This document shows positions 39,111 to 59,635 of a stretch of 64,000 nt of DNA, one piece after another. Location: positions 353,164 through 417,163 of the forward strand of contig OZ253463.1 in assembly GCA_965261635.1 (NCBI GenBank). Direction: 5' to 3'. Made by a program: the position numbers and the translations under genes. The notes beneath the pieces are model-generated. The model worked only from the letters and a program-made list of their open reading frames with translations. It was not told the origin of the DNA and searched no databases. The stretch comes from Chloroflexota bacterium (GTDB lineage: Bacteria > Chloroflexota > UBA11872 > VXOZ01). Every line of letters starts with the position of its first letter. Within the stretch, counting starts at the first letter, position 1.

Positions 39111-40097
39111 TCACACGAGCGCCCTGCCGCTCATCCAGTATTCGCGCCAGACCGTATAGCCGAGCTTGCCGTAGAAGTCGACGATGCGCGTCCAGTCGAT
39201 GTGGCAATTACCGATGCCACGATCCCGCAGAACCTGCGAGCCGACTGCCACCATGCCGATGCCGCGCCCCCGTTCGCTCGCCGCTACGCCTACGGCGCTG
39301 ATGCCGCCGAGGTTGTCCCCCAGCAACGTCTTCCACGTGATGTTCGCCCCCAGCCAGCGGGATGTCGGCGTGTGCAGCATGAGCGTGCTGACAATGCTCT
39401 TCCGTTCGTCGACTGCGATTAGCATATTCTGGAAATCGCCGAGCTCTGCCGTGTAGACGAATGCTGCGGCCCAACCGGGAAAGTGCTCCGCTTCAAAGGC
39501 AAGCACGTCCGCTACCTCGTCCTCCCGGGCCGGGCGTATTATCACCTGCTCCTGCGCCAAGCGCGCGCTCATCGCCGCAGGCATCTGAAAATCGCTAAGG
39601 TCGCGCACCAGGTCGCACGACCGCTGTTCCGGGTCAAGCGGCCAGCCGCAGGAGGCAAAGAACGGGTACGCCCCGGGCAAGTCGGTGGGGATCCCCGGCC
39701 AGAAGCGGTACGCGCCCCCACCGCCGAGACGCAGCGCGCCCACGCCCGCCTGCCGCAGATGGCCGAGCGCGGCCTCGTGCAGCCGCGTGCCGATGCCCTG
39801 CCGCTGCCGCTCCGGATGCACGAGCACCACGGATATCCCGCCGCTGCGCTCCTGCACGTCTGGCTCGCTCCGGTCAATCTGCGTGCCCACGAAGCCAACG
39901 ATCCGCTCGTCCGCGACCGCCACCAAGTGATCGTCCCCGCGATAGAAGCGATGATCGGTCAATTGCCGCCGCAAGAGGTCATCGCGCATGGGCCACGTCT
40001 CACCCAACACCGCCTGCCAAAGCGCAAGCAGCGATGCCGCGTCACCCTGCGGATCGTAGGTTTGGATTGTCATTTTGTTAATGGCTGATGCTCGCAA
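39111..40097 (-). CDS. GNAT family N-acetyltransferase (tandem GNAT domains)
   Basis: Two acetyl-CoA binding motifs, RQGIGTRL and RGRGIGMV. Confidence 0.8.
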   Translation of the reverse strand: MRASAINKMTIQTYDPQGDAASLLALWQAVLGETWPMRDDLLRRQLTDHRFYRGDDHLVAVADERIVGFVGTQIDRSEPDVQERSGGISVVLVHPERQRQGIGTRLHEAALGHLRQAGVGALRLGGGGAYRFWPGIPTDLPGAYPFFASCGWPLDPEQRSCDLVRDLSDFQMPAAMSARLAQEQVIIRPAREDEVADVLAFEAEHFPGWAAAFVYTAELGDFQNMLIAVDERKSIVSTLMLHTPTSRWLGANITWKTLLGDNLGGISAVGVAASERGRGIGMVAVGSQVLRDRGIGNCHIDWTRIVDFYGKLGYTVWREYWMSGRALV

Positions 40098-40205
40098 CGC
40101 AATTGCGCTGAGCGGTCATGAGTTGACACCACGCACTCCCCATCGTTTTCACACGATTTAGGCAAGTGTCATGAATGTAAAGAGAAGACCAAAGGAATTA
40201 GCGCG

Positions 40206-41006
40206 CTACATGTAATTGTATCGAACCTTATTATACAGATTGTCAAATACAGCAACTATTTCTTCGTCACTGCCTAGCATTCGCAAATAGCGGTCAATCT
40301 CGTCAAAAGGGATTTCGAAGTATTGGTCGAACAACTGGGCACCACGATAGATATTGCTCGAAGGAACATAAATCGGTCCGTAACGCTTAACTGGGTTGAG
40401 GTAATACAGAACGGGTCTTAACGCATGAACGTCGGTCACCTCAAGGCGGTTTATCAGTCCAGCATAGGTCTTGATGAATTTGCGGTTAATGTCCACAAAT
40501 TTGCCTGTATCATGGTCGTCGTTGTACTTAATCTCGACATATACGCTTTGCTTGCCTCCTACTTGGAATAGTGCATCCACATCCTTTGTAATGGTTTGCT
40601 TCGGCGCAGGTGAATCGCGTTCAATTGACAGTATTCGGTTGAGGAGTTCTTGGAACACCTCGTCGCAACCATCTGGACTATCTGGAAGCTGCCGAGAAGT
40701 AATGTATTCGTCGATCAAGCTATCCGTTTCTGCGGTCATAGAGAGAGGGATCTTCTTGCCTGATTCCGGCAGTGCCGAAACCTTCGTATCGTAGTCAACC
40801 ACAAGAGCAATGAGTTTTTCAATGAAGTTCCCGAACTTAATGTTGAGAGATTGGAGCAAACCGCCCAGCACACGATATTGCGGAGGAATAAAGTGAATTT
40901 TCTCTTTGTGTAGTGCGACACTCCTTTGAATATTCCTCTCTGATATAGTTTGGTCGATGATCGTCCGGATAGCGGTACGGACTATAGCACGGACATCCTC
41001 ATCCAT
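40206..41006 (-). CDS. Putative Type II restriction endonuclease (HinfI-like partner of the adjacent CcrM-type MTase)
   Basis: A 266-aa ORF immediately downstream of the MTase in a lower-GC islet. It has a PD-(D/E)xK-like D...EIK core (VYVEIKYNDDHD). Its size matches R.HinfI-class enzymes. Confidence 0.5.
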   Translation of the reverse strand: MDEDVRAIVRTAIRTIIDQTISERNIQRSVALHKEKIHFIPPQYRVLGGLLQSLNIKFGNFIEKLIALVVDYDTKVSALPESGKKIPLSMTAETDSLIDEYITSRQLPDSPDGCDEVFQELLNRILSIERDSPAPKQTITKDVDALFQVGGKQSVYVEIKYNDDHDTGKFVDINRKFIKTYAGLINRLEVTDVHALRPVLYYLNPVKRYGPIYVPSSNIYRGAQLFDQYFEIPFDEIDRYLRMLGSDEEIVAVFDNLYNKVRYNYM

Positions 41007-41015
41007 TAACCGCGC

Positions 41016-42140
41016 CTATCCTTTCAGGCCGTGTTCCTCACGGTACTTTTCCCTCAATCGGTCGATACTCATACGTTCGCCGTTGGCACTCTCGAAGTAC
41101 CAAAAATCCCATCCGTTAAAGGCGGTCTGCCCAAGCAGGCTAGCCGCAACTTTATGAATTGAGCCCTTTACATTTCCTGACGAAAGTGTACCATCCGCAT
41201 GAATGATAGCTTCACACTCTCGACTCTGGGCGTAGAGAACCTGCCCTACCGACAAGTACCCTGCTTCGACGAGCGCGCTAAAACGTACGCGTGGCTGATT
41301 ACGTCTAGAGTTCGTGATTAACACACTGTCATCGTAAGGTAGGGGACAGATACTCTCGATGCGCTGGCGAGCAATCCGCACATAATTCACTTCCCGCTCA
41401 ATCCCAACGTAGTTTCGTTTAAGCTTTTTGGCAACTGCTCCGGTTGTACCGGAACCAAAAAATGGATCAAGCACGGTATCACCGGGATTGCTCGAAGCGA
41501 GTATCACTCGGTACAGCAAGGATTCCGGCTTTTGTGTGGAGTGTGCCTTTTCCCCATTTACCTTGATCCGCTCCGCGCCTGTGCAGAGCGGAATGTGCCA
41601 CACATTTGGCATCTGTTTTTCTTCGTTTATGTTTTTCATAGCGTGGTAATTGAACGTATATCGTCTTTGGCCCTCCGTCTTTTTTGCCCAGATTAACGTT
41701 TCCGTGGCATTCGTAAAGCGAGTACCGCGGAAATTCGGCATGGGGTTGGACTTGTGCCAAATTACGTTATTCAGTATCCAAAATCCCAAGTCCTGCATAA
41801 TGCTGCCCACGCGGAAGATATTGTGATACGTTCCGATGACCCAGATTGTGCCATCGTCCTTTAGCACACGCCGACAAGCTTCCAGCCATGCACGCGTGAA
41901 TTTGTCGTACTCTTGAAAACCAGAGAACTTGTCCCAGTTGTCATCTACCGCGTCTACAAGTGTTTGATTTGGGCGTATGAGTTCATTTTGCAACTGCAAG
42001 TTATAAGGAGGGTCAGCAAAAATCAAGTCTGCACTTCTTTCCGGCAACACCTGCAAGATGCGGATACAATCACCTTGGATGACTTCATTCAGGGGAAGTA
42101 CACTTCTTGTCGCTACCACGTTGGTTTCACGTTCAACCAC
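41016..42140 (-). CDS. Beta-class N6-adenine DNA methyltransferase, CcrM/M.HinfI family (GANTC-type)
   Basis: Near collinear with CcrM: IQGDCI...LPE.S.DLIFADPPYNLQL...L.RP....VDAVDD.WD.F.....YD.FTR.WL...RRVLKDDG.IWVIG.YHNIFRVG...QDLGFWILN...W.KSNPMPNF.GTRF.NA.ETLIWA, motif I DPFFGSGTTGA, and the CcrM-type C-terminal domain. Confidence 0.85.
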   Translation of the reverse strand: MVERETNVVATRSVLPLNEVIQGDCIRILQVLPERSADLIFADPPYNLQLQNELIRPNQTLVDAVDDNWDKFSGFQEYDKFTRAWLEACRRVLKDDGTIWVIGTYHNIFRVGSIMQDLGFWILNNVIWHKSNPMPNFRGTRFTNATETLIWAKKTEGQRRYTFNYHAMKNINEEKQMPNVWHIPLCTGAERIKVNGEKAHSTQKPESLLYRVILASSNPGDTVLDPFFGSGTTGAVAKKLKRNYVGIEREVNYVRIARQRIESICPLPYDDSVLITNSRRNQPRVRFSALVEAGYLSVGQVLYAQSRECEAIIHADGTLSSGNVKGSIHKVAASLLGQTAFNGWDFWYFESANGERMSIDRLREKYREEHGLKG

Positions 42141-42209
42141 TTGTATACCCTTCTATTGTTAACCATTCTGATGGACACACGATCAGGTGCATGCGTAATA
42201 GCATCTGGC

Positions 42210-42983
42210 TTACGACAGCCGCATTGGGATTCCCTTAGCGGCCAAGTATTCTTTTACCTCGCGCACGGTGAAGTGCTCGTAGTGGAAGATGGAGGCGGCG
42301 AGCACGGCGTGGGCGTGGCCCTGATCGAGGGCCTCAAAGAGGTGTTCCAGAGTGCCGCCGCCGCCACTGGCAATCACCGGCACGTCCACGGCGGCGCACA
42401 CGGCAGCGAGGAGTTCCAGGTCGTAGCCGGCCAACGTGCCGTCGGCATCGATGCTGTTGACCACGATCTCGCCCGCGCCGCGTGCCACGCCCTCGATCGC
42501 CCACGGCACCGCCTCGCCATCTGTCTGGCGGCGGCCGCCGTGGGTAAAGACATGCCACTTGATGGTGCCGTCAGCTTGGGGCACGCGCTTGACGTCCATG
42601 GAGAGCACGGTGCACTGGCTGCCGAAGCCCTCGGCCCCGGCGTTGATCAGATCGGGATTCTCCACCGCCGCCGTATTGATGGAGACCTTGTCCGCGCCCG
42701 CCATGAGCATGCGACGCATGTCCGGCGCCGTGCGAATGCCGCCGCCGACTGTGAGCGGAATGAAGAGCTGGTCGGCGGTGCGCTCTACGAGGTCTTGGAA
42801 GATACCGCGCTCTTCCGCCGAGGCGGTGATGTCGTAGTAGACCAGTTCGTCGGCGCTCTGCTCGTTGTAGCGCAGAGCCAGCTCGATGGGGTCGCCGGCG
42901 TCCTTGTCAGCGGAGAATTGCACGCCGCGCACCACGCGGCCGCGATGCACGTCGAGACAGGGGATTATGCGTGTTGTGAGCAT
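42210..42983 (-). CDS. hisF: Imidazole glycerol phosphate synthase cyclase subunit
   Basis: RIIPCLDV...G..V.GV.F, and full-length TIM-barrel HisF conservation. Start placed at MLTTRIIP. Confidence 0.9.
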
Positions 42984-43274
42984 ACGGTTTACGTCGAAGA
43001 CCTTGAGAAACAATCCACAATTCGTGAACCGCTCGTCCCACACTTGGAACGGCGCACTTGAACACCTGGCACTCTTGTCGCCACCACCATGATAATTGAC
43101 GACATATCGCAGCGTCACGCTGGCAAGGGCTGTTGTCTGGTCAAAATAGTCTGTGCGTTGCTGGCAGGATCTTTGCTACTCATGCATCACGACTAAGCGC
43201 AAATAAACCACGTTCGTATCCAAGACAATCGCCCCTTGAAAGTACGGTATATTCTTTGCCCCAGCAGCTATTTC

Positions 43275-43970
43275 TTATTCCGTGCTCCCCCAGCTAGGCG
43301 GTTTCCTGATCGTGCCGTGCACGTCTGTCTGCGTGTTCGGGAATTGGCTCCGCCGCAGATGGCTCTTTCGAAGCCTCTTGACATAGGTTGCCGCATCTAC
43401 CAAGTCCCTGTGGGTGACATTGTTGGAGTCTGGATTTACCACTGCAACACGAAGGTGCAATCCTTCTCGCACGTACTGTATCGCGCTCGCAAAGTCCGAA
43501 TCGTTCTATACTATCACAGCATGCTCGTACTCGTGATTGAATCCGTCAACCAGAAGCCTGGTTACGAGGTTCACGTCTGAGCCCTTTTCCTCCGCCTCTC
43601 TAATTTGCACGTAATCCGGCAATCCCGCTATTGGGCTGACCAGCGGACGACGTTTGGTGCGCAACCGGAACGTGCCAAAATGGGCCTCGAAGTTCGGCAA
43701 AGTTGCTAGCGCCCTCAGATACACCTGTTGGCGCTGGGGCTGACCAGGGTCATTTGGACGCGCATCGAGCATCGCGGTAAAGTAACAGATTTGATTGATA
43801 GTATCTTTCGGAAAGAGCACCTCAGCGAGTTTGCGCAAATTTAGCCATTTGAAGGGAGTGTCCCTTAGAGCACGATAATATAGATTGAAACCGTCTACGT
43901 AGACGTTGGTCTTCACTTGACACTCCATCTGACCACTTAAAGACAGAGACCGCTCTGAGAGCGGCCTCAA
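43275..43970 (-). pseudogene. NYN/LabA-like (PIN-like nuclease) domain gene disrupted by frameshift
   Basis: Frame A (43506-43970) has the NYN N-terminus VYVDGFNLYY...EKGSDVNL. The adjacent frame B (43275-43472) continues with VAVVNPDSNNVTHRDLV, typical of the NYN C-terminal half. It lies in a lower-GC islet between hisA and hisF. Confidence 0.45.
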
Positions 43971-44168
43971 CCCTACCGCCTAAGCGATAGGGGCTGTATC
44001 TAGATATTAGCAAGTAGCCGAAAAGGTGTCAAGGGATTGTAGGCAGCAAGCCGGGGCCTTTTTCGTGCGCCTCTGTAGTTCACTCAGGCTGTTAGTTCCA
44101 ACAAAGGTCCCACGTCCCGATTGCCCGCCCTAGCACAATAAGAGTCAAACGAGGAGTCCCCGATTCGC

Positions 44169-44894
44169 TTATTGCCCCTGAATGCCCACCACATTCAGTG
44201 CTTCGGGCAGCGTGAACGCGCCCTTATAGAGCGCGGAGCCGACGATCGAGCCCTCAACGCCGAGGGTTGCCAGCCGCGTGAGGTGTTCGAGAGTCGCGAC
44301 CCCGCCGGAAGCAATCACCGGCGCGCTCACGGCCCGCGCCAGTGCCGCTGTTGCCTCGAAGTTGGGTTGGGAGAGCGTGCCGTCGCGCTCCACGTCGGTG
44401 TAGAGGAAGCGGCTCACACCGTTGGCGACCATCTGCTGCGCCAGGTCGAACATATCAACGCTGCTTTCCTGCTGCCAGCCGTGGGTCATCACCTTGCCGT
44501 TGCGGGCGTCCAGCGCCACCACCACCCGACCGGGGTAGCGTGCGCACGTTTCCGCCACCAGCGCGGGCTCCTCCAACGCCACCGTACCCAAGACAACCCG
44601 CGCCACACCCGCCGCGATCACCTCCTCGATGGCCGTCAGGTCGCGCAACCCGCCGCCCATCTGCACGGGTATCGACAGCGCTTCCGCCACGGCAGCCACC
44701 ACCGGCAGATTCCGGCTGCTGCCCTTCTCGGTGCCGTCCAGGTCTACCACGTGGAGCAGCGCCGCGCCCTGGGTCTCCCAGCCGCGGGCGGTCTCCACGG
44801 GATCGTGGGAAAATACCGTCCGCTGGGCGAAATCGCCTTTATAGAGGCGCACGACCACGCCGTCCTTGATGTCAATCGCGGGAATAACTTGCAT
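44169..44894 (-). CDS. hisA: Phosphoribosylformimino-5-aminoimidazole carboxamide ribotide isomerase
   Basis: MQVIPAIDIKDG...V.L.KGD N-terminus and the C-terminal phosphate-binding GG..IASGGV motif. Confidence 0.9.
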   Translation of the reverse strand: MQVIPAIDIKDGVVVRLYKGDFAQRTVFSHDPVETARGWETQGAALLHVVDLDGTEKGSSRNLPVVAAVAEALSIPVQMGGGLRDLTAIEEVIAAGVARVVLGTVALEEPALVAETCARYPGRVVVALDARNGKVMTHGWQQESSVDMFDLAQQMVANGVSRFLYTDVERDGTLSQPNFEATAALARAVSAPVIASGGVATLEHLTRLATLGVEGSIVGSALYKGAFTLPEALNVVGIQGQ

Positions 44895-45016
44895 ATCTAC
44901 TAAACCTACCGTGAACGCCGCTTGCCCGGGGAAATTCCACGAATCTTATCACCTGAACTCAATTTATGTTCCCTTGGCTGCGCAAGCGCATTCTTAATTG
45001 GCGTCTCATTTCGAGG

Positions 45017-45310
45017 TTGCTTGTCCCCCGCCTCTCCGGCATTGTGTCGTGGCGGCGGAACAGTAACCGTTCGTTCTGAGCCTGTCGAAGGATGAACAGG
45101 GGCTTGTCCCCCGCCTCTCCGGCATTGTGTCATGGCAGCGAAATAGTATCCGTTCGTCCTGAGCCTGTCGAAGGATGAACGGGAGGCTTGTCCCCCGCTC
45201 CTCAGCACCGTGTCATGGCGGCTGAACAGTATCCGTTCGTCCTGAGCATGCCTATCCTGAGCATGCCGAAGGGTCGAAGGATGAACGGGGCTTGTCCCCG
45301 CTTCTTGGCA
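45017..45310. repeat. Tandem array of three ~85-bp composite REP units in the hisA-hisH intergenic region
   Basis: Each unit is gcttgtcccccgcctctccggcattgtgtcatggcggc...ccgttcgtcctgagcctgtcgaaggatgaacgg. The second half is a palindrome (CCGTTC...GAACGG) of the dispersed CGTTCGTGCTGAG/GTCGAAG family. Confidence 0.55.
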
Positions 45311-45365
45311 CTTAGATAGCTACCATACCAGGCCATGCACTCGCAGACCCCAGCCCCACTTGACC

Positions 45366-46013
45366 TCAAGATTTAGCGTGCAGACCACTCGATGCACATG
45401 CCGTCGCGCCCGTTGCCCAGGCCACGAAATTCGCATAGAGCCGCAGGCCCATGGCGGCGCTCTTTTCCGGATGGAACTGGGTAGCAAAGACGTTCTCGCG
45501 CGCCAGCACGCTGGGAAAGGTCACGCCATAGTCGGTCGTACCGGCCGTAAGCGCGGCGTCGTCCGGATCGGTGTAGTACGAGTGCACGAAGTAGAAGTAG
45601 GCGTCGTCCGGGATACCGGCGAACATGGGATGCTCCTGCGCCTGGCGCACCTGGTTCCAGCCCATGTGCGGCACGGTAAGCCCTTTGGGGAAGCGCCGCA
45701 CCACGCCGGGATAGATATCCAGGCAAGGCGTGCCGCCATCCTCTTCACTCGCCGTCAGCAAGACCTGCAACCCCATGCAAATGCCGAAATAGGGCTTGCC
45801 GGACGCAATCGTCGCCTTCACCAGGTCGGTCATGCCGTGCCGCGCCAGCCCGCGAATAGTATCTCCCGCCGCCCCCACGCCGGGCAAAATCACAGCAGCA
45901 GAGCGCTCCACCACCGCCGGGTCCTGCGTCACCACATAGTCCTGCGTATACAACGCCACCGCGCGGCTAACACTTCGCAAATTCCCGGCACCGTAGTCAA
46001 TAATCGCAATCAT
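45366..46013 (-). CDS. hisH: Imidazole glycerol phosphate synthase glutaminase subunit
   Basis: MIAIIDYGAGNL N-terminus, catalytic Cys in GICMGLQ, and the C-terminal HPE. Confidence 0.9.
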   Translation of the reverse strand: MIAIIDYGAGNLRSVSRAVALYTQDYVVTQDPAVVERSAAVILPGVGAAGDTIRGLARHGMTDLVKATIASGKPYFGICMGLQVLLTASEEDGGTPCLDIYPGVVRRFPKGLTVPHMGWNQVRQAQEHPMFAGIPDDAYFYFVHSYYTDPDDAALTAGTTDYGVTFPSVLARENVFATQFHPEKSAAMGLRLYANFVAWATGATACASSGLHAKS

Positions 46014-46061
46014 GATAAAACGTCCACACCTATACGAAAGATCCACCAAAGTACGATACGC

Positions 46062-47576
46062 CTAAACGAACTTTCTTACACTCCTAATCTTACTTAACTC
46101 GTTGACGAGGAATTCTTGAGGCCGGTCGCCTTTTGTGCGATTACAATGCCCACAAAGTAATTGGAGGTTTTCCATATGGTCTGTACCGCCGCGTGAGCGT
46201 GGAATGACATGGTCAACTTCAAATATCTTGAACGGAAACTCCATTTTGCAGCCATTGCACTGCCCTTCTTGTTTGCCAAAGAGAACGTGCTTGTTCTGGC
46301 GATAGGGAACGGGCGTGTCGATGTCGGTTCGCTTTGGCGTATCGGAACGGGACACGACTAGTCGGTCGTGAAACAACCCGCCCATTGCGTCTGCAAGCCG
46401 AAATTTCACAAGTTCAACCGCTTTTGGCGACAGGTCAATACCAACCCACCTACGTCCCAGCGACTCGGCGGCGACGCAAGCAGTGGCGCAACCACAGAAC
46501 GGATCCAATACCAAGTCTCCAGGGTTGCTGCTCGCCGAGATGATGCGTTCCAACAGCGCCAATGGCTTTTGCGTCGGATAACCGATGCGCTCCTTGGCTT
46601 GTGCCTGCACGGGCAGTATATCGCTCATGAAATTGTTGCACTTCTGACCCGGCGTGGATGCTAGGTATCGCTTCAAAGCTGGCATGCCACCTTTCTTCTG
46701 CGGCCAGTAGAGCATCCCAGCATCGTCCAACGCATTCAGTCGGTCATGTACCCCTTTGATGCTCTTGTAACCCGGTATTACGTTTTCCTCAATCCAATCG
46801 GCGTAGGACCCAATGCTCGGAACTGCCCAGTGCCGTCCGCTGTTGTTCGGATCTGCATCCCTCCACGGCTCGCCGCTCTCCCCGGTTCTTGTTTCCGCTG
46901 CGGTTAGATCGGACAATCTGAACCGTCCGCGCTCTTCCTCGTGGCGGTAAAACTTGCGGATGTATTCGGGATCGTGAGGGACATATACATTGTTCCATGT
47001 CGCCCCTTGGCCCGCATAATAGAGCAATACATCGTAGACTCGCCCAAACCGCTCTCCGTCTGACCGTCCAGTCGTCCGCTTCCACGCTATTTCGTTCCTG
47101 AAGTCTGCCGCGCCAAAGACACTATCCAGCAGCAGCTTTAGGTAGTGGCTTGCCGTGGGGTCGCAGTGGAGGTAGATGCTTCCATTTTCTTTCAGTACGC
47201 GCTTCATTTCCATCAGCCGTACGGTCATCATGCATAGGTACGATTGCATTCCCTTGCCGTGCGTTAGGCCGGCCGTCTCAATGACTTTGTACACGGCGGG
47301 TTGCTCATCGGCGATCAAGCCCATCCAGGCAACATCGAGATCGGAGAGCGTCCATGTGTCCTTGAAGGCGGCGCCCGCCGCCACGCTCCCTACCGGCGCC
47401 GCATAAGTTCGGTTGGAATTGAATGGCGGGTCAAGGTAGATGAGATCGACACAACTGCTATTCAGACCTCTTAGGATGTCGAGGTTATCGCCTGTCCAGA
47501 TCGTTCTGTTCGCAAAGTTGGGGTCAGTGTTCATGCCAATTGTTCCATGCGCTACTGTAATTGCGGGAGTTGGCAA
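46062..47576 (-). CDS. Beta-class (N4C/N6A) DNA methyltransferase fused to a C-terminal HNH endonuclease domain
   Basis: The 504-aa ORF has motif IV LDPPFNS near the N-terminus and motif I DPFCGCATACVAAESLGRRWVGIDL late in the protein. It ends in an HNH module (CNGCK...DHVIPRSRGGTDHMENLQLLCGHCN). It lies in a lower-GC islet. Confidence 0.8.
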   Translation of the reverse strand: MPTPAITVAHGTIGMNTDPNFANRTIWTGDNLDILRGLNSSCVDLIYLDPPFNSNRTYAAPVGSVAAGAAFKDTWTLSDLDVAWMGLIADEQPAVYKVIETAGLTHGKGMQSYLCMMTVRLMEMKRVLKENGSIYLHCDPTASHYLKLLLDSVFGAADFRNEIAWKRTTGRSDGERFGRVYDVLLYYAGQGATWNNVYVPHDPEYIRKFYRHEEERGRFRLSDLTAAETRTGESGEPWRDADPNNSGRHWAVPSIGSYADWIEENVIPGYKSIKGVHDRLNALDDAGMLYWPQKKGGMPALKRYLASTPGQKCNNFMSDILPVQAQAKERIGYPTQKPLALLERIISASSNPGDLVLDPFCGCATACVAAESLGRRWVGIDLSPKAVELVKFRLADAMGGLFHDRLVVSRSDTPKRTDIDTPVPYRQNKHVLFGKQEGQCNGCKMEFPFKIFEVDHVIPRSRGGTDHMENLQLLCGHCNRTKGDRPQEFLVNELSKIRSVRKFV

Positions 47577-47713
47577 ATAAAGTATACTGCACGCTCTATT
47601 GACTGTGCTAAGCCTGCGAAAGCAACGACCAAGTGACTGGCACTCGTATTGTATGATTTAAGTAGTAGAGTCTCGCTCTCACAAGAAGCATATGGGGGAA
47701 GTTTGCTGTTATC

Positions 47714-49537
47714 ATGTATTTTCTAAAGCCCTCACCTAGAATCTCAGACTTTGACAATTGCGCCTGGGAAGAGGCGGTTGATTCAGCCTATGCGAAGAAG
47801 TGCTCAGCCTACTTTGAGTCTTTTAGAGACAAGATTACAGAAACAGCTGAAAGAGGAGATGAGCAACAGCAAAACGTATTCACGGTAATGTGGGCTGCTA
47901 CTTCACTTCATCTCAACAATCCTTCCGACGAATCTAACCCGTTTTGTCCAATTGCGACTGGTACTGGTTTCCGGTTTGCAGAAGTGGATGATTTTACGGA
48001 TGAGCATCTAGAGGTCTTTGGTAAGCTAATCTCAAGAATCAAGGATCCAGAACTACGTGCGCGCATCGCGGACATCGTATGGGTACGGAACCGCAGTCAC
48101 AAGGTAGCAGAGCAGGCAGTTGGCGCGTACTTGGAATCTGCAGGAAGATTAGAAGACACGGATGTGCCCGAGCCACCGTGCATAGACAGAATAAAACGTG
48201 CCGTTACCCTAGCGGTGTTGCACGGAAGAAAAACGCAGATGTTCAAGCAGGTCATAGCACACATTGAAGATACCCTCGAAAGACACAAAGAGAACGACCC
48301 CTCGTATTTGTCCGCAGAATTAATGAAAATGTTGCTAGAAAAGAAGGTGGGAGATGGTGCGACGTACGCGCAGCTTGCAGAAAGGCATGCCATCGCCGCA
48401 GAAAGTGACGAGGACTGGTATAGACCTAAGACTTACTTGGAGTTGCAAGCTCGCTGGCTCGAACGTGCGAAGGACAATACGGGCAGCAGAGCAGCACACA
48501 TTAGAGTGGCAGAGCAATACGAGCACGCGGCAAGAGATCTAGCAAACCGAGCACGACCAGACTACCTAACGGCAGCGGAGCTCCTCAAGAGCGCCATTCA
48601 AGCCTATCAGCGCATTGGCGGAGAAGAGGAACGTATAGAGAAACTGCATCGAGAACTCCTGGAATACCAGCGCAAGGGAACAGGCCAAATGGGACGAGTC
48701 TCTGCGGAGATCCCGATAGACGACTTGAGTGCATCTGCGATTAACGCAGTGAAGGAAAAGCCAAAAAGTGAAGCAATTCGTGCACTGGCTTTGATTGATG
48801 ACCCTTCTTACCTTGGTTTTCTGCGCCAGCACGTTGAACAGGAGAAGGAAGATTTTCCTTTGCTACATATTCTGCCCTGGATTCAGCAAGATGCATCAGG
48901 GCGAACACTCGGTTCTGTTCCATCGTCACTCTCGGATAGCGCGGAAGATAAAGCGGCTGCAACCCATTCTCACTTACTGAGACATGCAAGTCTAATGCGC
49001 TCGCTGATGGTACAAGCTCGCATTGAACCAGCACGGCGACAGATTCATCAAGAACACAGTATGTGCGAGCAAGACTTTGCACCATTCGTTGCTGACAATC
49101 CCTTCGTGCCGGAGGGCAGAGAAACGCAGTATGTCCGCGGTCTCCACGCTGGCCTAGAGGGCGACTTCGAAATTGCAGTCCCTCTTCTGATCCCGGAAGT
49201 GGAGAACTCTATAAGGCATGTTCTGTCTCTACGCGGAGTGGTCACTTCAGGCCTGGATTCAAAAGGTATTCAAAGAGTTTACGGATTGGGGAAATTGCTC
49301 CATCGTCCTGAATTGAAGAAAATCTTGGGCAACGACATAGCTTTTGACCTACAGGGCCTACTGGTTAAGTCGGAGACAGGGGTGGGAGACAATCTTCGGA
49401 ATCGAATGGCGCATGGCCTGATGGACGACAAGGATTTCTTTAGAACAGACGCAATCTACCTTTGGTGGCTGGCGCTTCACCTGCTCGTTCGCTTTCAAAT
49501 TGCACGTGATTCTCGTGTTGGTCAGAGCCAGAGCTAG
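47714..49537 (+). CDS. Large hypothetical protein with a C-terminal HEPN-like Rx4H motif (GDNLRNRMAHG)
   Basis: A 607-aa, mostly alpha-helical ORF transcribed divergently from the MTase-HNH gene. The C-terminal ~120 aa carry an R-N-x-x-A-H-G motif, characteristic of HEPN RNase active sites in Abi-type proteins. Confidence 0.5.
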   Translation: MYFLKPSPRISDFDNCAWEEAVDSAYAKKCSAYFESFRDKITETAERGDEQQQNVFTVMWAATSLHLNNPSDESNPFCPIATGTGFRFAEVDDFTDEHLEVFGKLISRIKDPELRARIADIVWVRNRSHKVAEQAVGAYLESAGRLEDTDVPEPPCIDRIKRAVTLAVLHGRKTQMFKQVIAHIEDTLERHKENDPSYLSAELMKMLLEKKVGDGATYAQLAERHAIAAESDEDWYRPKTYLELQARWLERAKDNTGSRAAHIRVAEQYEHAARDLANRARPDYLTAAELLKSAIQAYQRIGGEEERIEKLHRELLEYQRKGTGQMGRVSAEIPIDDLSASAINAVKEKPKSEAIRALALIDDPSYLGFLRQHVEQEKEDFPLLHILPWIQQDASGRTLGSVPSSLSDSAEDKAAATHSHLLRHASLMRSLMVQARIEPARRQIHQEHSMCEQDFAPFVADNPFVPEGRETQYVRGLHAGLEGDFEIAVPLLIPEVENSIRHVLSLRGVVTSGLDSKGIQRVYGLGKLLHRPELKKILGNDIAFDLQGLLVKSETGVGDNLRNRMAHGLMDDKDFFRTDAIYLWWLALHLLVRFQIARDSRVGQSQS

Positions 49538-49585
49538 CAGATCAAGACCTAAAGATCGAAACCTTAGTTGCTAGCCAGCCGATGC

Positions 49586-51343
49586 TCAACCCACTTCAGA
49601 ATTCGCGCGGTCGTCTCTAGCAAAGAACAGCAGCACGAACACGGCTAAGAATGTGCCGAGGAGCCAGAGGCGGGGGATTTCCGCAGTGACCCAGAGCAGG
49701 CCGGGGACGAGGTAGAGCAGGCGGCGGCGGTGGGGGAGCGCGAAGAGGAAGAGCGCGGCCCAGCCGAACAGGAGGTAGCGGACGTGGATAACCGGCAGCG
49801 TGAGGATGTAGAAGAGCCCGGCTTTGGCCAGCGCGCGGCGGTGGCTGGGATCGAACATCACCAGGATTGCGAAGAGCGCGTTCGCCAGGCCCACGTAGCG
49901 GTTGTCGAGCGCATTTAGCCACGCGGGGGCAGACGCGCCGAATGCTTGGTACATCTCCTGCACGAGGAGCAGCGGCTCGCCGCGGTCCAGCAGGTGTCCG
50001 CCGAGCGCCCAGCGGAAAGCCGTCAAGTCAACGGCGGCGTACGGTACTGCGATCAGTCCCAACAGACCGAGCGACGTGAGCGCGTAGAGGCCGGCGTCCT
50101 GCACGCCGCGCCAGCGCAGGTACCAGAAGAACGCCACAATGCCGGCAATGCCGAACTCCAGGCGCGTGGAAGCGGCGAGGGCCAGGAAGATGCCGGCCAG
50201 CCAGGGCTTCTCCCACCGGGCCACGGCCAGCACGAAGAAGAGCAGGGCGACGGCGTGGCTCTGCGCGTTATCGATGGTGGCGGTCAGCAGCCAGGGGTGC
50301 AGGTACCAGACGGCCGCGGCGACCAGCGCCACAAGCAACCCCAGCCGGGGCGCAGACAGTGAAGCTTCACCATCGGATTCGCTATCCGCGTTACCGGCAA
50401 CTCCCCCTGAGAAATGCCGTTGCGCTTGCAAAGCCAGCGCATAGATGACAATCGTGCTCAGCACGTCTGCGGTGTAGGTAGGAATCTTGATGGAGAGAAT
50501 CTGCGGCCAGTCGAAGTGGTACGCCGCGCGCCAAATGGGCGCCATAATCAAATTGAACGTTGCCAGTTGGTCCTGCGGCCAGGGCAGGTCGCGGGCCAGG
50601 TGGTAGTAAAGGAAGTGAGTCTTCGTGAAGACCATGCCAGCGTAGAAATAGAAGTGCTGCACGTCGCCGCCCTCGAGGAGAAGATCACGCAGGCGCAGCG
50701 CCAGACCCGCCACAAGCAGCACCACGAAAGCGCTATGCAAGCGTAAGAACTGCCCTACCCGATGCCAACTCACCAAGAGTGGATTTCCGCTTTCGCGGGA
50801 ATGACGGAATGGCGTTGTCCGGCGGAAAAGCGTCGCCAGGCGGAAAGGCGTCGCTTGACGAAGGAGCATTGCCAGGCGCAAGGGCGGCCAGCGGTCGAGC
50901 GCAGGCGCCGTATCGAGCACCCATACCTGCAGAGCGAGCGTAATTCCCACGATCACGTATGCGGCAAGCATTTTCGGCAACGCAACTTGCCAGAGCAGGT
51001 AGTGGGTGAAGTCGGTGAGATAGAACAGTGCCAGACCCGGTGCTCCCAGCCAAAAGGGCGCAAGAGACGAGTTGAATGCGCGCCCAAGCGCGGGGCCCTG
51101 CGCTCCCATGCGTCGGAGCACCCACCAATAGGCCCACTGCCAGCAGATAACGCCAACCGGTGCAAGCGCAATCGCCAACAACCACGGCAGCGACGCTTGC
51201 CACGGCCAGGCGCGACCCACAAAGAGCATTGCGAGAAAAGGGCCCGCGCAGACTCCGCGCAGAATAGCGAGAACCCCTTCTCGCCCTAATAGGAAGGCTT
51301 GAGGCTGCAAAAACTCGGAACTCTGGAGGCGAGAATCACTCAT
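49586..51343 (-). CDS. Polytopic integral membrane protein (DUF2029/glycosyltransferase-like), with an in-frame REP insertion
   Basis: The 585-aa ORF has more than 12 predicted TM segments. Codons around 50780-50880 (LRQATPFRLATLFRRTTPFRHSRESGNPL) are encoded by a dispersed REP copy plus an 18-bp tandem duplication, so the ORF may be two genes or carry an inserted segment. Confidence 0.55.
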   Translation of the reverse strand: MSDSRLQSSEFLQPQAFLLGREGVLAILRGVCAGPFLAMLFVGRAWPWQASLPWLLAIALAPVGVICWQWAYWWVLRRMGAQGPALGRAFNSSLAPFWLGAPGLALFYLTDFTHYLLWQVALPKMLAAYVIVGITLALQVWVLDTAPALDRWPPLRLAMLLRQATPFRLATLFRRTTPFRHSRESGNPLLVSWHRVGQFLRLHSAFVVLLVAGLALRLRDLLLEGGDVQHFYFYAGMVFTKTHFLYYHLARDLPWPQDQLATFNLIMAPIWRAAYHFDWPQILSIKIPTYTADVLSTIVIYALALQAQRHFSGGVAGNADSESDGEASLSAPRLGLLVALVAAAVWYLHPWLLTATIDNAQSHAVALLFFVLAVARWEKPWLAGIFLALAASTRLEFGIAGIVAFFWYLRWRGVQDAGLYALTSLGLLGLIAVPYAAVDLTAFRWALGGHLLDRGEPLLLVQEMYQAFGASAPAWLNALDNRYVGLANALFAILVMFDPSHRRALAKAGLFYILTLPVIHVRYLLFGWAALFLFALPHRRRLLYLVPGLLWVTAEIPRLWLLGTFLAVFVLLFFARDDRANSEVG

Positions 51344-52809: not shown

Positions 52810-53772
52810 CTATGATTCCGCTTCCTGCACGTTTAGGACACGCACGTGCGCCTGCTCTGCTGCCGACTGCGCCGGACCGGAAAGCGGCCCGTTCACTACC
52901 AGCACGCCAACCTTGTGCGTATCTCCCTCCAATGCCGCCACAAGCTGCTCGACTTCGCTTGCGGGCACCGGCAGTTCCGGCACCACGCGCACGGCCAGGA
53001 AGCGTGCGCCTCTCTCCAGAGTAAGAGAGGCGGCCCCTTCATCCTGGCTGTCAGCCAGGGCCACCGCATATCCCTGTCGGCGCAGCCCGCGCACCGCAGC
53101 TTCCAGCAGCGAGGCACGCAACGACGCTTGGGGAGTCTTCGCAACCGGTGTCAGCGCCTTCAGCACGTCCTGGTGAATCCAGTGTTCTTGCGGCGTGGGG
53201 CCGATGTGCACCGGAGGATTCTCCAGAAACCGGTCCGCCCGGGAGTTCGCGCCACAGTAACACATAATAGCGTACCCAATAGGAATGCCGACCACACTGC
53301 CCACCGACGTAAAGAAGGCGAGCCAGAGCCAAAGGCCCTTCACGCGCATACCTTGGGCCACATACCAGCCACCGGTAAGCAAGAATGCCCCCCACTGCCA
53401 CTGTGTCGGCACAAGCGGCATTTGTCCGTTTGCCTCGCACCAGTGGCGATAGGCATCACCCCGAAACGACGCGGCACAATAGCAACCAAAGAACGACCAG
53501 AGTATGAGCGAACCGACGATCGCGGGAGGCACGGCCGCCGGAAATGAGAGCTGGCGGATGAGGAACAGCGTGTTGATAATCGCGAGTACAGTCACGGCGA
53601 CTTGGGGCACAAGCAGCACACGCCCCTTTTCACTTATTCCCTGCCGCAGATACCAGATCGCGCCGAGCGCAAACGCGGGCCAACTCCAGCCGTTGGGCGG
53701 CAGAGTGGGCCAAGCGGGAGATTGGACTGTCGAGGAAAGCTCCACTTGCAAGGCCTTTACGTCTGGTAGCAC
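52810..53772 (-). CDS. Membrane protein with a C-terminal restriction-endonuclease-like (Mrr-cat-like, possibly degenerate) domain
   Basis: Four or more N-terminal TM helices. The C-terminal ~110 aa (LEAAVRGLRRQGYAVALADS.DEG...LAVRVV...VGVLVV) resemble the Mrr catalytic fold but lack a clear D-(D/E)xK motif. Confidence 0.4.
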   Translation of the reverse strand: MLPDVKALQVELSSTVQSPAWPTLPPNGWSWPAFALGAIWYLRQGISEKGRVLLVPQVAVTVLAIINTLFLIRQLSFPAAVPPAIVGSLILWSFFGCYCAASFRGDAYRHWCEANGQMPLVPTQWQWGAFLLTGGWYVAQGMRVKGLWLWLAFFTSVGSVVGIPIGYAIMCYCGANSRADRFLENPPVHIGPTPQEHWIHQDVLKALTPVAKTPQASLRASLLEAAVRGLRRQGYAVALADSQDEGAASLTLERGARFLAVRVVPELPVPASEVEQLVAALEGDTHKVGVLVVNGPLSGPAQSAAEQAHVRVLNVQEAES

Positions 53773-54390
53773 AGAAATTCCAGGTCAGAGAGCACGAGCA
53801 TTCCCGTGCCTACACCGGTCATTGCAGGATTATTACCTTGTGTTGAACAAACACTCAAGCTGCTTAGAAACCGGCTTGTGATAGTTGTAACAGCCGTAGC
53901 AATCGGCGGAGAGCATGTCAATGCCACATAACGCCAAAACCGCGCATACAGATAAGAAGGGTGATTTGGCCGTATCTACCGCCCATTGTGGAGAGCAATC
54001 ATTAAATTGTCAATTTCGCCCACATTGTAGTATGCGACAATCGAGCGATGCGGTCTATCGGTGCTCTATATGGTGTAACCCAGCAACGAGCTACACTGCC
54101 GCCCAAGAGCAGTTTCTTATCAAGCTCTTAGGAAACTTCGCGGAAGAGATTTGGGCGGAAGGCCACTTTTCCCTGCAATAGCGCGCATCAATCGTTTTTC
54201 CATAAGCTTGACAGCAGCAGCCATTCTTAGATATCCTGGAAATGCATGTGAAAGTGCACACAAAGTAGTAGTACGAGGAATTTCAGAAGAAGGAAATTAC
54301 TGCCTTAGTAGGTACACTTGCGTACCGCGTCCGTGTGCTGCATGCATTTGGTATTCGGGTACTAGTGTTCAGTTTTCGCTGGAGGATCTG

Positions 54391-59446: not shown

Positions 59447-59635
59447 TTGAGCAAGGATGGCAGAATTGTCTCGTCATTAACACAATCACAGGTCTTGGGG
59501 AATCTTCCAGAGGCTGCAATTGACTACGTCTTTGTTGAACCAAGCAACCGGGAAAGGGCTACCAAGTGGCTCAATGAGAATAGGGAGGATATTATAGAAA
59601 GAGCAAAGGAGGAGGACCGTGGGTCAATTGAATAG
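59447..59635 (+). CDS. Small hypothetical ORF (candidate partner of the Panacea-domain gene)
   Basis: A 62-aa hydrophilic ORF with only a TTG start and an RBS 18 nt upstream. It overlaps the downstream gene start by 17 nt in a lower-GC islet. The existence of this ORF is uncertain. Confidence 0.2.
   Translation: MSKDGRIVSSLTQSQVLGNLPEAAIDYVFVEPSNRERATKWLNENREDIIERAKEEDRGSIE

Follow-up and report, generated by a model that had tools for sequence, protein, structure and literature searches.

Variable candidate defence cassettes in the spacers adjoining hisH, hisA and hisF of an uncultured Chloroflexota lineage

We analysed a 64,000-nt stretch of DNA (hereafter, the window) from an uncultured Chloroflexota lineage (UBA11872; VXOZ01) and compared it with 17 related genomes or contigs, each representing a separate species-level cluster. 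All relatives were metagenome-assembled genomes (MAGs), several of them single-contig chromosomes of ~3.5 Mb. The closest genome was L001, with ~96–97% nucleotide identity to the window across the backbone. L001 and L002 are sisters of the window; L166 is outgroup-like and falls outside the L001–L015 group by hisA and hisH identity. A search of a metagenome collection for close relatives found none.

Three intact his genes lie on the reverse strand: hisF, for the cyclase subunit of imidazole glycerol phosphate synthase (42210..42983; TIGR00735, 345 bits, positions 1–254 of 254), hisA, for ProFAR isomerase (44169..44894; TIGR00007, 260 bits, positions 1–230 of 231), and hisH, for the glutamine amidotransferase subunit (45366..46013; TIGR01855, 205 bits). 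Each matched its own TIGR model end to end. Identity to L001 was 98% (amino acids) for hisF and 97% (amino acids and nucleotides alike) for hisA. An earlier note on this DNA had stated that the rest of the his pathway is missing from the window, and indeed Pfam or NCBIfam scans of ~50 window ORFs revealed no further his genes. Its premise that hisF, hisA and hisH are normally adjacent fails for the phylum: in other Chloroflexota, small unrelated genes separate hisA from hisF.

The site-variability comparison with L001 spanned ~25 kb of aligned sequence. Every major difference, comprising all large indels and the sole divergent tract, fell in the four spacers adjoining the his genes. The genes on the far flanks, a GNAT acetyltransferase gene beyond hisF and orf585 beyond hisH, were more diverged from L001 (90% and 88% amino acid identity, respectively) than the remaining backbone genes (96–98%).

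The GNAT gene (39111..40097, reverse strand; Pfam Acetyltransf_1) is a conserved backbone gene whose true start probably lies ~50 nt inside the listed ORF. It follows hisF directly or nearly directly in L001, L002, L004, L007, L009, L010 and L161. In the window, a restriction–modification (R-M) pair on the reverse strand lies between the two. It consists of a full-length HinfI-family type II restriction endonuclease (40206..41006; NCBIfam NF045831, 260.5 bits against a cutoff of 175, positions 1–263 of 264; called REase_II by PADLOC) and a CcrM/M.HinfI-like beta-class N6-adenine DNA methyltransferase (MTase) with a C-terminal RAMA domain (41016..42140; Pfam N6_N4_Mtase 231 bits, RAMA 55 bits), whose gene begins 69 nt downstream of the hisF stop codon. 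The pair does have the low GC content ascribed to it (0.449, z −4.2, for the endonuclease; 0.488, z −3.5, for the MTase) and does sit beside hisF, but its place between hisF and the GNAT gene means that it does not split hisHAF, contrary to what had been proposed. L166 carries the same hisF–MTase–endonuclease order, with a homologous hisF–MTase spacer. Nucleotide identity between the window and L166 was 84–88% for the R-M pair (88.5% for the endonuclease, at the equal position) and only 78–79% for hisH and hisA. The higher identity of the R-M genes could stem from constraint rather than transfer. The site is empty in L002, L004, L009, L010 and L161, and holds DUF5677-like ORFs in L001 and L007. 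The observed/expected ratio of GANTC in the host was 0.91, inside the 0.81–1.11 range of control motifs, so there was no clear avoidance, a result compatible with recent acquisition of the R-M pair.

The site upstream of hisH is bounded on its far side by the backbone gene orf585 (49586..51343, reverse strand), recognized by synteny and found in L001, L002, L004, L007, L009, L010 and L166. As the earlier note had it, an islet with MTase-HNH and HEPN genes lies just beyond hisH. The first gene (46062..47576, reverse strand) encodes an N6/N4 DNA MTase fused to a C-terminal HNH nuclease (Pfam N6_N4_Mtase 137 bits, HNH 53 bits), with a target-recognition region inserted in the MTase part; hisH follows 48 nt after its end, and its PDB matches were only MTases and Cas9 HNH domains. 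The second, divergently oriented (47714..49537, forward strand), encodes a protein with DUF7380 (Pfam, 143 bits) and DUF4209 (45 bits), called PDC-S39 by PADLOC (638 bits); DUF4209 is classed as a HEPN family (PMC3710099). GC content was 0.50 for the PDC-S39 gene (z −3.8; tetranucleotide z +5.2) and marginally low for MTase-HNH (0.54, z −2.1). Sequence shared with L001 and L002 begins just 4 nt upstream of the hisH ATG, and homology to L001 stops at 49623, in orf585. L007 has the same two-gene layout at this site. The site is empty in L001, L002, L004, L009 and L166, and holds PDC-S19 (with DUF3644) in L010 and PDC-S39 alone, 51% identical in amino acids to that of the window, in L011.

Between hisA and hisF lies a divergent allele of a gene for an NYN-domain (HEC-09-like) RNase (43285..43916, reverse strand), recognized by tblastn to its intact L001 orthologue, which matched Pfam NYN (43 bits) and PADLOC HEC-09 (126 bits over the full model length). 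The window copy aligns in one frame across 213 codons (76% identity to L001) with a lone TAG at 43506–43508, just before the conserved NDSDF motif, where ten homologues show serine (TCA/TCC). A lower-GC islet with a frameshifted NYN gene had been described here; the location holds, whereas the GC dip is marginal (0.53, z −1.8) and the lesion is an in-frame stop codon instead of a frameshift. Eight relatives, L166 included, keep hisA and hisF adjacent, and all of them have NYN between the two; hisA-NYN-hisF is therefore the ancestral order. Where hisA and hisF became separated, NYN stays attached to one or the other. The window allele shares only 75% nucleotide identity with that of L001, compared with 97% for hisA next to it, and its nearly equal distances to all relatives do not follow a tree-like pattern. 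It looks as though the allele has been swapped.

A conserved 55-nt leader RNA (43939..43993, reverse strand) precedes the NYN gene and is predicted to form two hairpins (minimum free energy −39.4 kcal/mol, z −4.85), the second followed by UGUCUUU and hence terminator-like. Folding predictions agreed for 18 copies of the leader, taken from 17 loci; in hairpin 2, three positions of the stem carry compensatory changes. Mean pairwise identity was 0.88 for the leader compared to 0.725 for the NYN coding sequence. The leader occurs once within the window and had no match in Rfam; L170 has two leader units, each with its own promoter. A strong predicted sigma-70-type promoter (TTGACA-17-TAATAT with an upstream TG; 44004..44032, reverse strand) was the best match of the region in the consensus scan (10/12). 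All 17 loci have its −35 and −10 elements at the same spacing from hairpin 1, in surroundings that are only 58% identical. Wherever this NYN family was examined (17 loci), promoter and two-hairpin leader went with it.

The spacer between hisH and hisA holds the repeat array that had been reported there. It is built of an 83-nt REP-like unit (45019..45310; TRF score 353), with 2.8 copies by TRF (45019–45247) and a degenerate extra copy to 45310. The hairpin core GTTCGnnCTGAGCnnGTCGAAGnnnGAAC also occurs at 7985, 17968 and 35154, where stem variants remain complementary, and had five matches elsewhere in the window against zero expected. One copy falls inside a predicted ORF (17968–17996). The core or an associated GGGGGACAAGCCCCC element was present in the hisH–hisA spacer of most relatives inspected, and REP-like elements also occupy that of L166, so they are old in this gap. 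In L002, an IS110-family transposase is embedded between repeat copies of the spacer.

Promoter calls were consensus matches or phylogenetic footprints, and the scan returned six sites compared to 6.2 expected from shuffled sequence, so there was no excess. A promoter-like site ~105 nt upstream of hisF (GTGACG-18-TATCAT; 43089..43118, reverse strand; consensus scan) is kept in place in eight of nine genomes, including L001, L002, L004, L007, L009, L010 and L161, within a spacer that is otherwise unalignable; it was not seen in L166. The native hisH promoter motif was found in L001, L002, L003, L008, L009, L011, L012 and L166, and is missing in the window and L007. Judging from sequence, the native hisH promoter region of the window was replaced by MTase-HNH, so that hisH would most likely be cotranscribed with the MTase-HNH gene or have its transcript start inside it. 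A separate promoter for every his gene is probable, as suggested by the conserved promoter-like elements of hisF, of hisH (in relatives) and also of NYN. The arrangement may be tolerated because the his genes would not form an obligate operon here.

The best reading, to which we give as a whole a probability of about 0.7, is that this lineage has normal, intact housekeeping genes in hisH, hisA and hisF, that each adjoining spacer is a permissive soft spot, and that the region amounts to several small defence hotspots flanked by core genes, with homologous recombination exchanging their cargo. The orf585–hisH and hisF–GNAT sites, which show three or four alternative cargo states each among the relatives, would be the defence hotspots, either empty or occupied by differing low-GC cassettes: the HinfI-type R-M pair, the MTase-HNH and HEPN/PDC-S39 islet, HEPN/PDC-S19, or DUF5677-like ORFs. 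Half of this cargo counts only as candidate defence, with PDC-S39 and PDC-S19 as predicted systems. Cassettes would be gained, lost and exchanged through the flanking genes. NYN would be an old, self-contained resident of the hisA–hisF spacer, with its own promoter and structured leader, whose allele here would have been exchanged and later disabled by a nonsense mutation. The hisH–hisA spacer would be a long-standing site for REP-like hairpin repeats and, in one relative, for an IS110 element too.

Because the R-M junction is shared with L166 and the islet layout with L007, both are shared polymorphic cassettes and not private events. With NYN ancestral and the repeats old as well, the "three independent insertions" of the earlier note do not stand. 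The recurrent integration hotspot that it envisaged holds as gene-content turnover, seen in the four spacers relative to L001, and finds no support as site-specific integration. Synteny with relatives likewise gave a divided answer, with an ancestral hisA-NYN-hisF order and variable cargo at the two outer sites. Computed GC and k-mer composition confirmed the suspected low GC for the endonuclease, its MTase and PDC-S39, was marginal for MTase-HNH and NYN, and showed no deviation for the repeat spacer. From the absence of mobile-element scars and the mosaic of identities, we infer homologous recombination with the conserved flanking genes as anchors, instead of site-specific integration.

A purely ancestral layout (MTase-HNH/HEPN-hisH-REP-hisA-NYN-hisF-M-R-GNAT) eroded by differential loss, with no recurrent acquisition, is unlikely. 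Such an ancestor would explain why L166, from outside the group, has hisF-M-R with a homologous junction, why MTase-HNH in L007 is 90% identical in amino acids to that of the window, near the 91% of hisH, and why NYN and REP-like elements are common to most relatives. Loss alone is, however, insufficient for the unrelated cargo at the same sites (PDC-S19/DUF3644 in L010; DUF5677-like ORFs in L001 and L007), and the tree pattern would require at least three to four independent losses per site, with both cassettes in the window and neither in its sisters L001 and L002. Loss also fits poorly with the window resembling L166 more in the R-M genes than in hisH or hisA, with PDC-S39 being only 56% identical to that of L007 next to a 90% identical MTase-HNH, and with cargo that is not ameliorated, as its GC content is still strongly atypical.

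Site-specific integration or transposition of mobile elements, with preferred targets (REP hairpins or att sites) in the his spacers, seems improbable. IS110-family elements target REP-type repeats, in line with the transposase inside the REP-like array of L002, and NYN homologues elsewhere adjoin large serine recombinases. Against this, no integrase, transposase, recombinase or tRNA gene was found in the window at 39–51 kb (the nearest tRNA is at 55111), and cassette boundaries showed no target-site duplication and no terminal, direct or inverted repeats beyond chance-sized matches. The two cassette sites yielded no REP-like copies, and the cassettes occupy precisely the interval between one core gene's stop codon and the beginning of the following core gene. 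That the low-GC segments are foreign contigs misjoined in assembly or binning is very improbable: the relatives are all MAGs and the compositional contrast is sharp, yet the L166 and L007 layouts recur in independent assemblies from different samples, NYN junctions recur in at least eight genomes, several of them single-contig chromosomes, and coding frames and spacers run unbroken through the junctions.

Read as small defence hotspots, the his region is a small example of a known pattern of defence genes between core genes. Its closest known counterparts are the core defence hotspots cDHS1 and cDHS2 of Pseudomonas aeruginosa (PMC10250203) and the defence-island integration hotspots of E. coli (PMC10121019), which likewise hold variable, lower-GC defence cargo between the same core genes, are empty in some genomes, lack obvious mobile-element machinery and have been proposed to recombine homologously via their flanks. 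The his sites differ in size (1–2 genes, 2–3.6 kb each, against a known median of 26 kb), in being several adjacent micro-sites that alternate with three genes from a single biosynthetic pathway, in their uncultured Chloroflexota host, in having no flanking tRNA or tmRNA, and in that their variability was compared within ~25 kb.

The R-M pair resembles HinfI/CcrM-type GANTC systems in its end-to-end HinfI-family endonuclease, its beta-class N6-adenine MTase with CcrM-like core and RAMA domain, and the adjacency of both genes on one strand, its specificity and activity being predicted; its host shows no clear GANTC depletion. The MTase scored 556 bits against the NCBIfam CcrM model, below the equivalog cutoff of 830, and is thus not an orthologue of the cell-cycle CcrM. 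The repeats resemble REP/BIME palindromes as short, GC-rich, dispersed intergenic hairpins, sometimes tandem, with complementary stem variants and an IS110-family element within one such array (L002); in sequence they are unrelated to the REPs of enterobacteria or pseudomonads, and one copy lies in a predicted ORF.

Like HEC-09, as described in the available part of Payne et al. (bioRxiv 10.1101/2024.01.29.577857), the NYN gene is a single-gene NYN/PIN-like RNase; that part places HEC-09 in the Hma system, mentions no conserved promoter and two-hairpin leader, and includes one test in which it gave no anti-phage protection. The window gene is embedded between hisA and hisF and is a nonsense pseudogene. 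In architecture, the NYN module may be likened to type III toxin–antitoxin systems (ToxIN, CptIN, TenpIN), where a promoter, a short structured RNA and a terminator-like hairpin precede an endoribonuclease gene; as with these, the module is found on mobile elements and in defence contexts. Its nuclease is of the NYN and not the ToxN/AbiQ type, toxicity and RNA–protein pairing are hypothetical, and its RNA is a single unit (two with separate promoters in L170) instead of a tandem array of 2–6 repeats. Whereas the hotspot pattern is already known, the conserved structured RNA ahead of NYN is the more unusual part of these findings.

The three histidine biosynthesis genes in this region, all on the minus strand, were identified by end-to-end equivalog matches: hisH (45366-46013), hisA (44169-44894), and hisF (42210-42983). 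They did not form a contiguous hisHAF operon, being separated by spacers of 471 nt (hisH-hisA, with a tandem repeat) and 1185 nt (hisA-hisF). The longer spacer contained the NYN gene (43285-43916, minus), which encodes a HEC-09-like RNase. Upstream of hisH lay a gene for an N6/N4-MTase fused to an HNH nuclease (MTase-HNH; 46062-47576, minus), preceded by a DUF7380+DUF4209 gene (PDC-S39; 47714-49537, plus) and by orf585 (49586-51343, minus). Beyond hisF were genes for a CcrM-like MTase with a RAMA domain (41016-42140, minus) and a HinfI-family REase (40206-41006, minus), followed by a GNAT gene (39111-40097, minus) and then cbiMNQO. The remainder of the his pathway was missing from the window, as the earlier note had reported: no further his gene was found among the ~50 ORFs scanned.

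The GC content of the window is 0.59 and dropped to 0.44-0.52 at 40.0-42.2 kb, 43.0-44.1 kb, and 46.0-49.5 kb. We calculated composition z-scores using length-matched windows from the remaining sequence as the reference. Clear outliers were the REase (z -4.2), the MTase paired with it (z -3.5), and the DUF4209 gene (z -3.8), which also had a tetranucleotide z of +5.2; MTase-HNH (z -2.1) and the NYN gene (z -1.8) were borderline. The impression of lower GC was thus borne out by computation for the first three genes and only marginally for the other two. The repeat spacer was not atypical compared to length-matched windows.

The nearest relatives were Chloroflexota MAGs with HisA 83-97% identical (loci L001-L015). 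A Pseudomonas-type origin, which the GC content and the REP label had suggested, was rejected in view of these relatives. A metagenome scan with HisA yielded a best match of 55% identity, that is, no close relatives, and did not enlarge the census. Synteny was assessed by mapping 20 window proteins onto L001-L015 and then onto two further his loci, L161 and L166. In a rough tree built from hisH and hisA, the window grouped with L001 and L002 (95-96% nucleotide identity), with L007+L010 and L009 adjoining this group, and a second branch comprised most of the others (L003, L005, L006, L008, L011-L015). L004 fell on the second branch in this two-gene tree, yet its gene order was that of the first group. 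L166 was about equally distant from all relatives (hisA 75-78% nucleotide identity) and therefore acts as an outgroup. The core flanks of the two outer sites, orf585|hisH and hisF|GNAT, were present in L001, L002, L004, L007, L009, and L010, and partly in L161 and L166. Between genomes, the same sites carried different cargo or none.

Three cargo states of the hisF|GNAT site were detected across the related genomes. It was empty, with a spacer of ~60 nt, in L002, L004, L009, L010, and L161. L007 carried one to two ORFs, with a DUF5677 match that was weak and below threshold (20 bits), and homologous ORFs were present in L001, where they had no PADLOC match; this alternative cargo of one to two low-GC ORFs spans 12753-14488 in L001 and 12666-13541 in L007. 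The window and L166, an informative relative reached via an NYN homologue, carried a HinfI-type M-R pair. The earlier note had counted this pair among the elements splitting hisHAF; its actual position is between hisF and GNAT. The window REase belongs to the HinfI family (NF045831, 260.5 bits against a cutoff of 175, positions 1-263 of 264) and matched PADLOC REase_II (195 bits); an exact-protein look-up returned no record for it. The adjacent MTase, on the same strand after a gap of ~9 nt, matched N6_N4_Mtase (231 bits) and RAMA. Unlike the orphan CcrM, it is paired with a REase, and an assignment as a CcrM orthologue was rejected (NF050803, 556 bits against an equivalog cutoff of 830). The pair was the same in L166, and the spacer between hisF and the MTase gene was homologous in the two genomes. 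Nucleotide identity between the window and L166 was 84% for the MTase and 88.5% for the REase, exceeding the values for hisH (79%) and hisA (78%) and close to that for hisF (86%).

At the site upstream of hisH, four cargo states were found. The site was empty (~170-280 nt) in L001, L002, L004, L009, and L166; it held MTase-HNH and PDC-S39 in the window and L007, PDC-S39 alone in L011, and a DUF3644/HEPN gene (PADLOC PDC-S19, 462 bits) in L010. The MTase-HNH proteins of the window and L007 were 90% identical, the PDC-S39 proteins only 56%. The window PDC-S39 gene matched PDLC05011 in PADLOC (638 bits) and PF13910 (DUF4209; 45 bits, threshold 22.3). The label "HEPN" previously given to it is right because DUF4209 is a HEPN family (PMC3710099). 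PDB sequence searches returned only generic MTase and HNH matches for MTase-HNH and no match for PDC-S39. Within the 20-kb loci, the R-M pair is of a bona fide defence class, PDC-S39 and PDC-S19 are PADLOC candidates, and the DUF5677-like cargo had no PADLOC match.

Compared to L001, 25 kb of aligned backbone was ~96-97% identical, and the sole large differences were the cassettes at 49623-46017 and 42216-40030, a divergent NYN tract, and the repeat array. Genes adjoining the cassettes were more diverged (orf585 88% and GNAT 90% amino acid identity) than the others (95-99%). Each cassette occupies its spacer from one core-gene stop codon to within 4 nt of the start codon that follows. The 39-51 kb stretch has no gene for an integrase, recombinase, or transposase, and the nearest tRNA is at 55111. 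A search for direct or inverted repeats at the boundaries found only imperfect matches of 12-25 nt; these were of chance size and were rejected as att sites or target-site duplications. Nor was there a clear depletion of GANTC in the window (O/E 0.91, similar in relatives without the R-M pair) that could mark long residence of the R-M pair. The lack of mobile-element machinery and boundary repeats, the spacer-filling cassettes, the undepleted GANTC, and the mosaic identity together make homologous recombination the most economical model, and we infer that cassettes would be exchanged between related genomes by recombination for which the conserved his genes and adjacent genes serve as anchors.

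Pure differential loss from an ancestral layout is an unlikely alternative to such exchange, as it does not account for sites that are filled with unrelated cargo in different genomes. An assembly artefact is excluded, since identical junctions are found again in independent assemblies. The picture of a hisHAF operon split by three private insertions does not hold. Judged by synteny, the four spacers adjoining the his genes are instead long-standing plastic sites. Two of them appear to act as miniature defence hotspots whose cassettes are shared and exchangeable; a third harbours an ancient NYN module, and the fourth is occupied by REP-like repeats. The earlier observations were thus largely correct in their parts, and the interpretation right only in part.

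Synteny also argued against the NYN gene being a recent insertion. The order hisA-NYN-hisF was found in all genomes with hisA beside hisF (the window, L001, L002, L004, L007, L009, L010, and L166). In the L011 genome, to which locus L161 belongs, hisA and hisF are ~85 kb apart, and the order is nitroreductase | NYN-hisF-GNAT. The nitroreductase gene adjoins orf192-PhyH-PhyH in the window, and these three genes follow hisA in the L011 genome. A single inversion would thus relate the two genomes; one of its breakpoints falls in the hisA|NYN spacer, and the other lies between the nitroreductase gene and orf192-PhyH-PhyH (window 15-4256; L011 10800-14300; L161 4025-7746). In L003, NYN remains with hisA, which implies a second breakpoint, in the NYN|hisF spacer. 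Since NYN is present wherever hisA and hisF are adjacent and is kept with either when they are parted, hisA-NYN-hisF is ancestral. In distant Chloroflexota, inspection of translated ORFs found unrelated small genes between hisA and hisF (SAM-MTase-like, nuclease-like, and thioesterase-like), so that a gene in this spacer is common in the phylum.

The window NYN allele was only 75% identical to that of L001 at the nucleotide level, as against 97% for the adjacent hisA, and was about equally distant (73-76%) from all relatives; the NYN-hisF spacer of the window did not align to L001 or L002. The gene had been described as frameshifted. Compared to the intact 214-aa orthologue of L001, it keeps one frame throughout, and the reading frame is interrupted by a single in-frame TAG (43506-43508) that replaces a Ser codon kept in ten homologues, directly before the NDSDF motif. 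This looks like an allele replacement by recombination followed by a nonsense mutation. A predicted gene on the plus strand, orf114 (43236-43580), was rejected as an antisense shadow of the 3' part of NYN. The intact L001 orthologue matched PF01936 (43.3 bits, threshold 24.2) and PADLOC HEC-09 (PDLC04163, 126 bits, positions 4-203 of 203), and a PDB sequence search with NYN gave only spurious TCR matches. For HEC-09, a candidate defence gene, a preprint reports that its test showed no protection (bioRxiv 10.1101/2024.01.29.577857).

The position of MTase-HNH has a probable bearing on the transcription of hisH. A promoter-like element (TTGTnn, ~17 nt, then gcGATAnnAT) lies ~40 nt upstream of hisH in L001, L002, L003, L008, L009, L011, L012, and L166, and this native motif was absent from the window and L007. 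In both of these, MTase-HNH stops 48 nt upstream of hisH, and homology with the empty site starts 4 nt before the ATG. The 48-nt gap (window 46014-46061; L007 8852-8903) is common to both genomes and lacks the native motif. With the native motif gone and the MTase-HNH stop so near, window hisH would most likely depend on transcription through or out of MTase-HNH; on the sequence evidence, an essential-pathway gene appears to have been captured transcriptionally by a defence-type gene. A simple insertion of MTase-HNH downstream of the native hisH promoter was rejected, the native motif being absent from the PDC-S39/MTase-HNH spacer.

The earlier note had asked whether the three his genes are still co-transcribed. 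A conserved promoter and a terminator-like hairpin lie between hisA and hisF: among the promoter matches of the region, the best (TTGACA-17-TAATAT, preceded by a TG; 44032-44004) is in the hisA-NYN gap, and the hairpin follows it. In addition, GTGACG-18-TATCAT was kept ~105 nt upstream of hisF in eight of nine genomes, in a spacer that was otherwise unalignable. The his genes are thus probably separate transcription units, which would explain the tolerance of insertions between them. The promoter scan overall detected six sites against 6.2 expected from shuffled sequence, and the promoter argument therefore rests on conservation across genomes and not on the scan.

The tandem array in the hisH|hisA spacer was confirmed, with 2.8 copies of an 83-nt unit at 45019-45247. 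Its hairpin core is also present at 7985, 17968, and 35154, and the stem variants remain complementary. The window has five matches to the core versus none expected, and more copies were found in relatives; "REP-like" is therefore a fair description. Like REP-type repeats, the window repeats are short imperfect palindromes with dispersed extragenic copies and some tandem clusters. The spacer measures 200-560 nt in close relatives other than L002, and in many relatives, including L166, it contains the same hairpin core or an associated GGGGGACAAGCCCCC element. In more distant Chloroflexota, hisH and hisA nearly abut. The L002 spacer is 2 kb long, with an IS110-family transposase gene between two repeat groups (DEDD_Tnp_IS110 + Transposase_20, 8435-9370, minus; repeats 8235-8345 and 9633-9827). 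IS110-type elements prefer REP-type targets, and an IS110 gene inside the REP-like array of L002 fits this preference. An Rfam search of 38.5-52 kb (E<=1) gave three chance-level matches, none at the array or the NYN leader.

Several features outside the his region were also recorded. The core copy at 17968-17996 falls within a predicted 714-aa ABC-transporter ORF (16624-18768), between the membrane and ATPase domains; either a repeat may have been inserted in frame, or two genes may have been fused in the ORF call. A second tandem array (7746-7996; period 39/78 nt, 3.2-6.4 copies) ends in the hairpin core at 7985-8013, just upstream of tRNA-Gln (8362-8435) and then a low-GC ORF (8746-9651, GC 0.49); this stretch is possibly a further small island. 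A DDE transposase gene (DDE_Tnp_1 + DUF772; 20039-21007, plus) with backbone-like GC (0.65) lies between sugar-nucleotide genes. A 320-aa protein (52810-53772, minus) has a C-terminal Mrr_cat restriction-endonuclease-like domain (23 bits); it is 95% conserved in L001 and L002 and thus belongs to the backbone, not to the variable cargo. Two short low-GC ORFs (59619-60170 and 53915-54181, both plus; GC 0.47-0.48) had no family match, and the one at 53915 lies within a stretch aligning to L001 and L002 at ~92-96% nucleotide identity.

The NYN family is very large, with 7,225 matches at E<1e-5 and more than 120 at at least 69% identity. Its contexts included the his cluster (L161, L166), unrelated chromosomal neighbourhoods (L162, L167, L169, L170), and mobile-element-like regions where NYN adjoins large serine recombinases (L163, L164/L165, L171-L173). 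Such neighbourhoods of NYN and recombinase genes lie at L163 1-7897, L164 3845-5167, and L171 91-1683; the L163 neighbours also include TrwB-like and relaxase-like genes. Judging from these neighbours, integrative or mobilisable elements appear to carry the NYN module. A DUF772/DDE pair similar to the DDE transposase gene of the window was seen beside the module in L164. Scans of a viral-contig collection with the NYN protein and the leader pattern found nothing, and thus gave no sign of a phage-borne module in that collection.

In all 17 NYN loci examined, the gene is preceded by a promoter (TTGACA-17-T(G/A)nTAnnnT) and a two-hairpin leader RNA (window 43939-44032, minus; L001 10856-10962; in L161-L171 upstream of each NYN gene). 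Hairpin 1 (CCCCUAUCG-loop-CGGUAGGG) begins ~6 nt after the promoter and is followed by hairpin 2 (GAGACCGnnn-loop-nnnCGGUCUC), UGUCUUU, a Shine-Dalgarno sequence, and the start codon. All 18 leader copies are predicted to fold into the same two hairpins (-26 to -36 kcal/mol; z -4.85 versus shuffles for the window copy, which is the only one in the window). In hairpin 2, three positions carry compensatory double changes, and two others carry G-U changes. Mean pairwise identity was 0.88 for the leader (55-57 nt), 0.725 for the CDS, and 0.58 for the promoter spacer. L170 has an extra promoter and leader unit (2750-2860) that lies 136 nt upstream of the normal unit and is not followed by an ORF, which suggests that the RNA may also act on its own. 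The leader had no match in Rfam. We conclude from its conservation and predicted folding that the NYN module includes the leader as a functional RNA element.

The proposed module combines a strong promoter, an RNA of ~56 nt with two hairpins and a terminator-like stem at its end, and an NYN endoribonuclease. With low confidence, we suggest that the NYN gene belongs to a large family (>7,000 homologues) of RNA-protein modules in which the RNA is a functional partner of the nuclease, possibly as a type III-TA-like RNA antitoxin or as an autoregulatory leader bound or cleaved by the RNase. Alternatively, the leader may be no more than a conserved attenuator or terminator that is not specifically linked to the NYN protein. 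A partner RNA fits the leader being the most conserved part of the module (0.88 versus 0.725 for the CDS), its travelling with the NYN gene into mobile elements, and the extra promoter-driven copy without an ORF in one genome. As far as we checked, no earlier description of such NYN-RNA modules was found. A conserved structured RNA on a huge NYN family offers a testable handle on HEC-09, a candidate defence or addiction gene without a phenotype so far; this side observation may outweigh the hotspot finding in value, and the leader is the element most worth following.

Compared to known systems, the NYN module resembles type III TA systems in having a terminator between the RNA and the nuclease gene, here a predicted 9-11-bp GC-rich hairpin followed by UGUCUUU in 18 of 18 copies. 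It lacks the two features that define type III systems, namely a toxin of the ToxN type and RNA repeats in tandem. Type III toxins belong to the ToxN/AbiQ family, whereas the protein here is of the NYN type, and its Pfam/PADLOC output contained no ToxN-type family. Type III antitoxin RNAs are tandem repeats, whereas a single leader unit was present in 16 of 17 loci; in the exception, L170, the two units are 136 nt apart and each has its own promoter. The region as a whole is a further example of core-gene-flanked defence hotspots, a known phenomenon, and in P. aeruginosa, a homologous-recombination route has likewise been suggested for core defence hotspots (PMC10250203). It indicates that hisHAF adjacency is not the default in Chloroflexota. 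With the hisH promoter lost to a defence cassette, MTase-HNH is coupled physically, and probably transcriptionally, to histidine biosynthesis, and this coupling could make the cassette less prone to being lost. The principle of such hotspots, variable immune cargo between fixed core genes without mobile-element scars, would operate also at the scale of a single spacer, inside a biosynthetic gene cluster of a poorly studied phylum.
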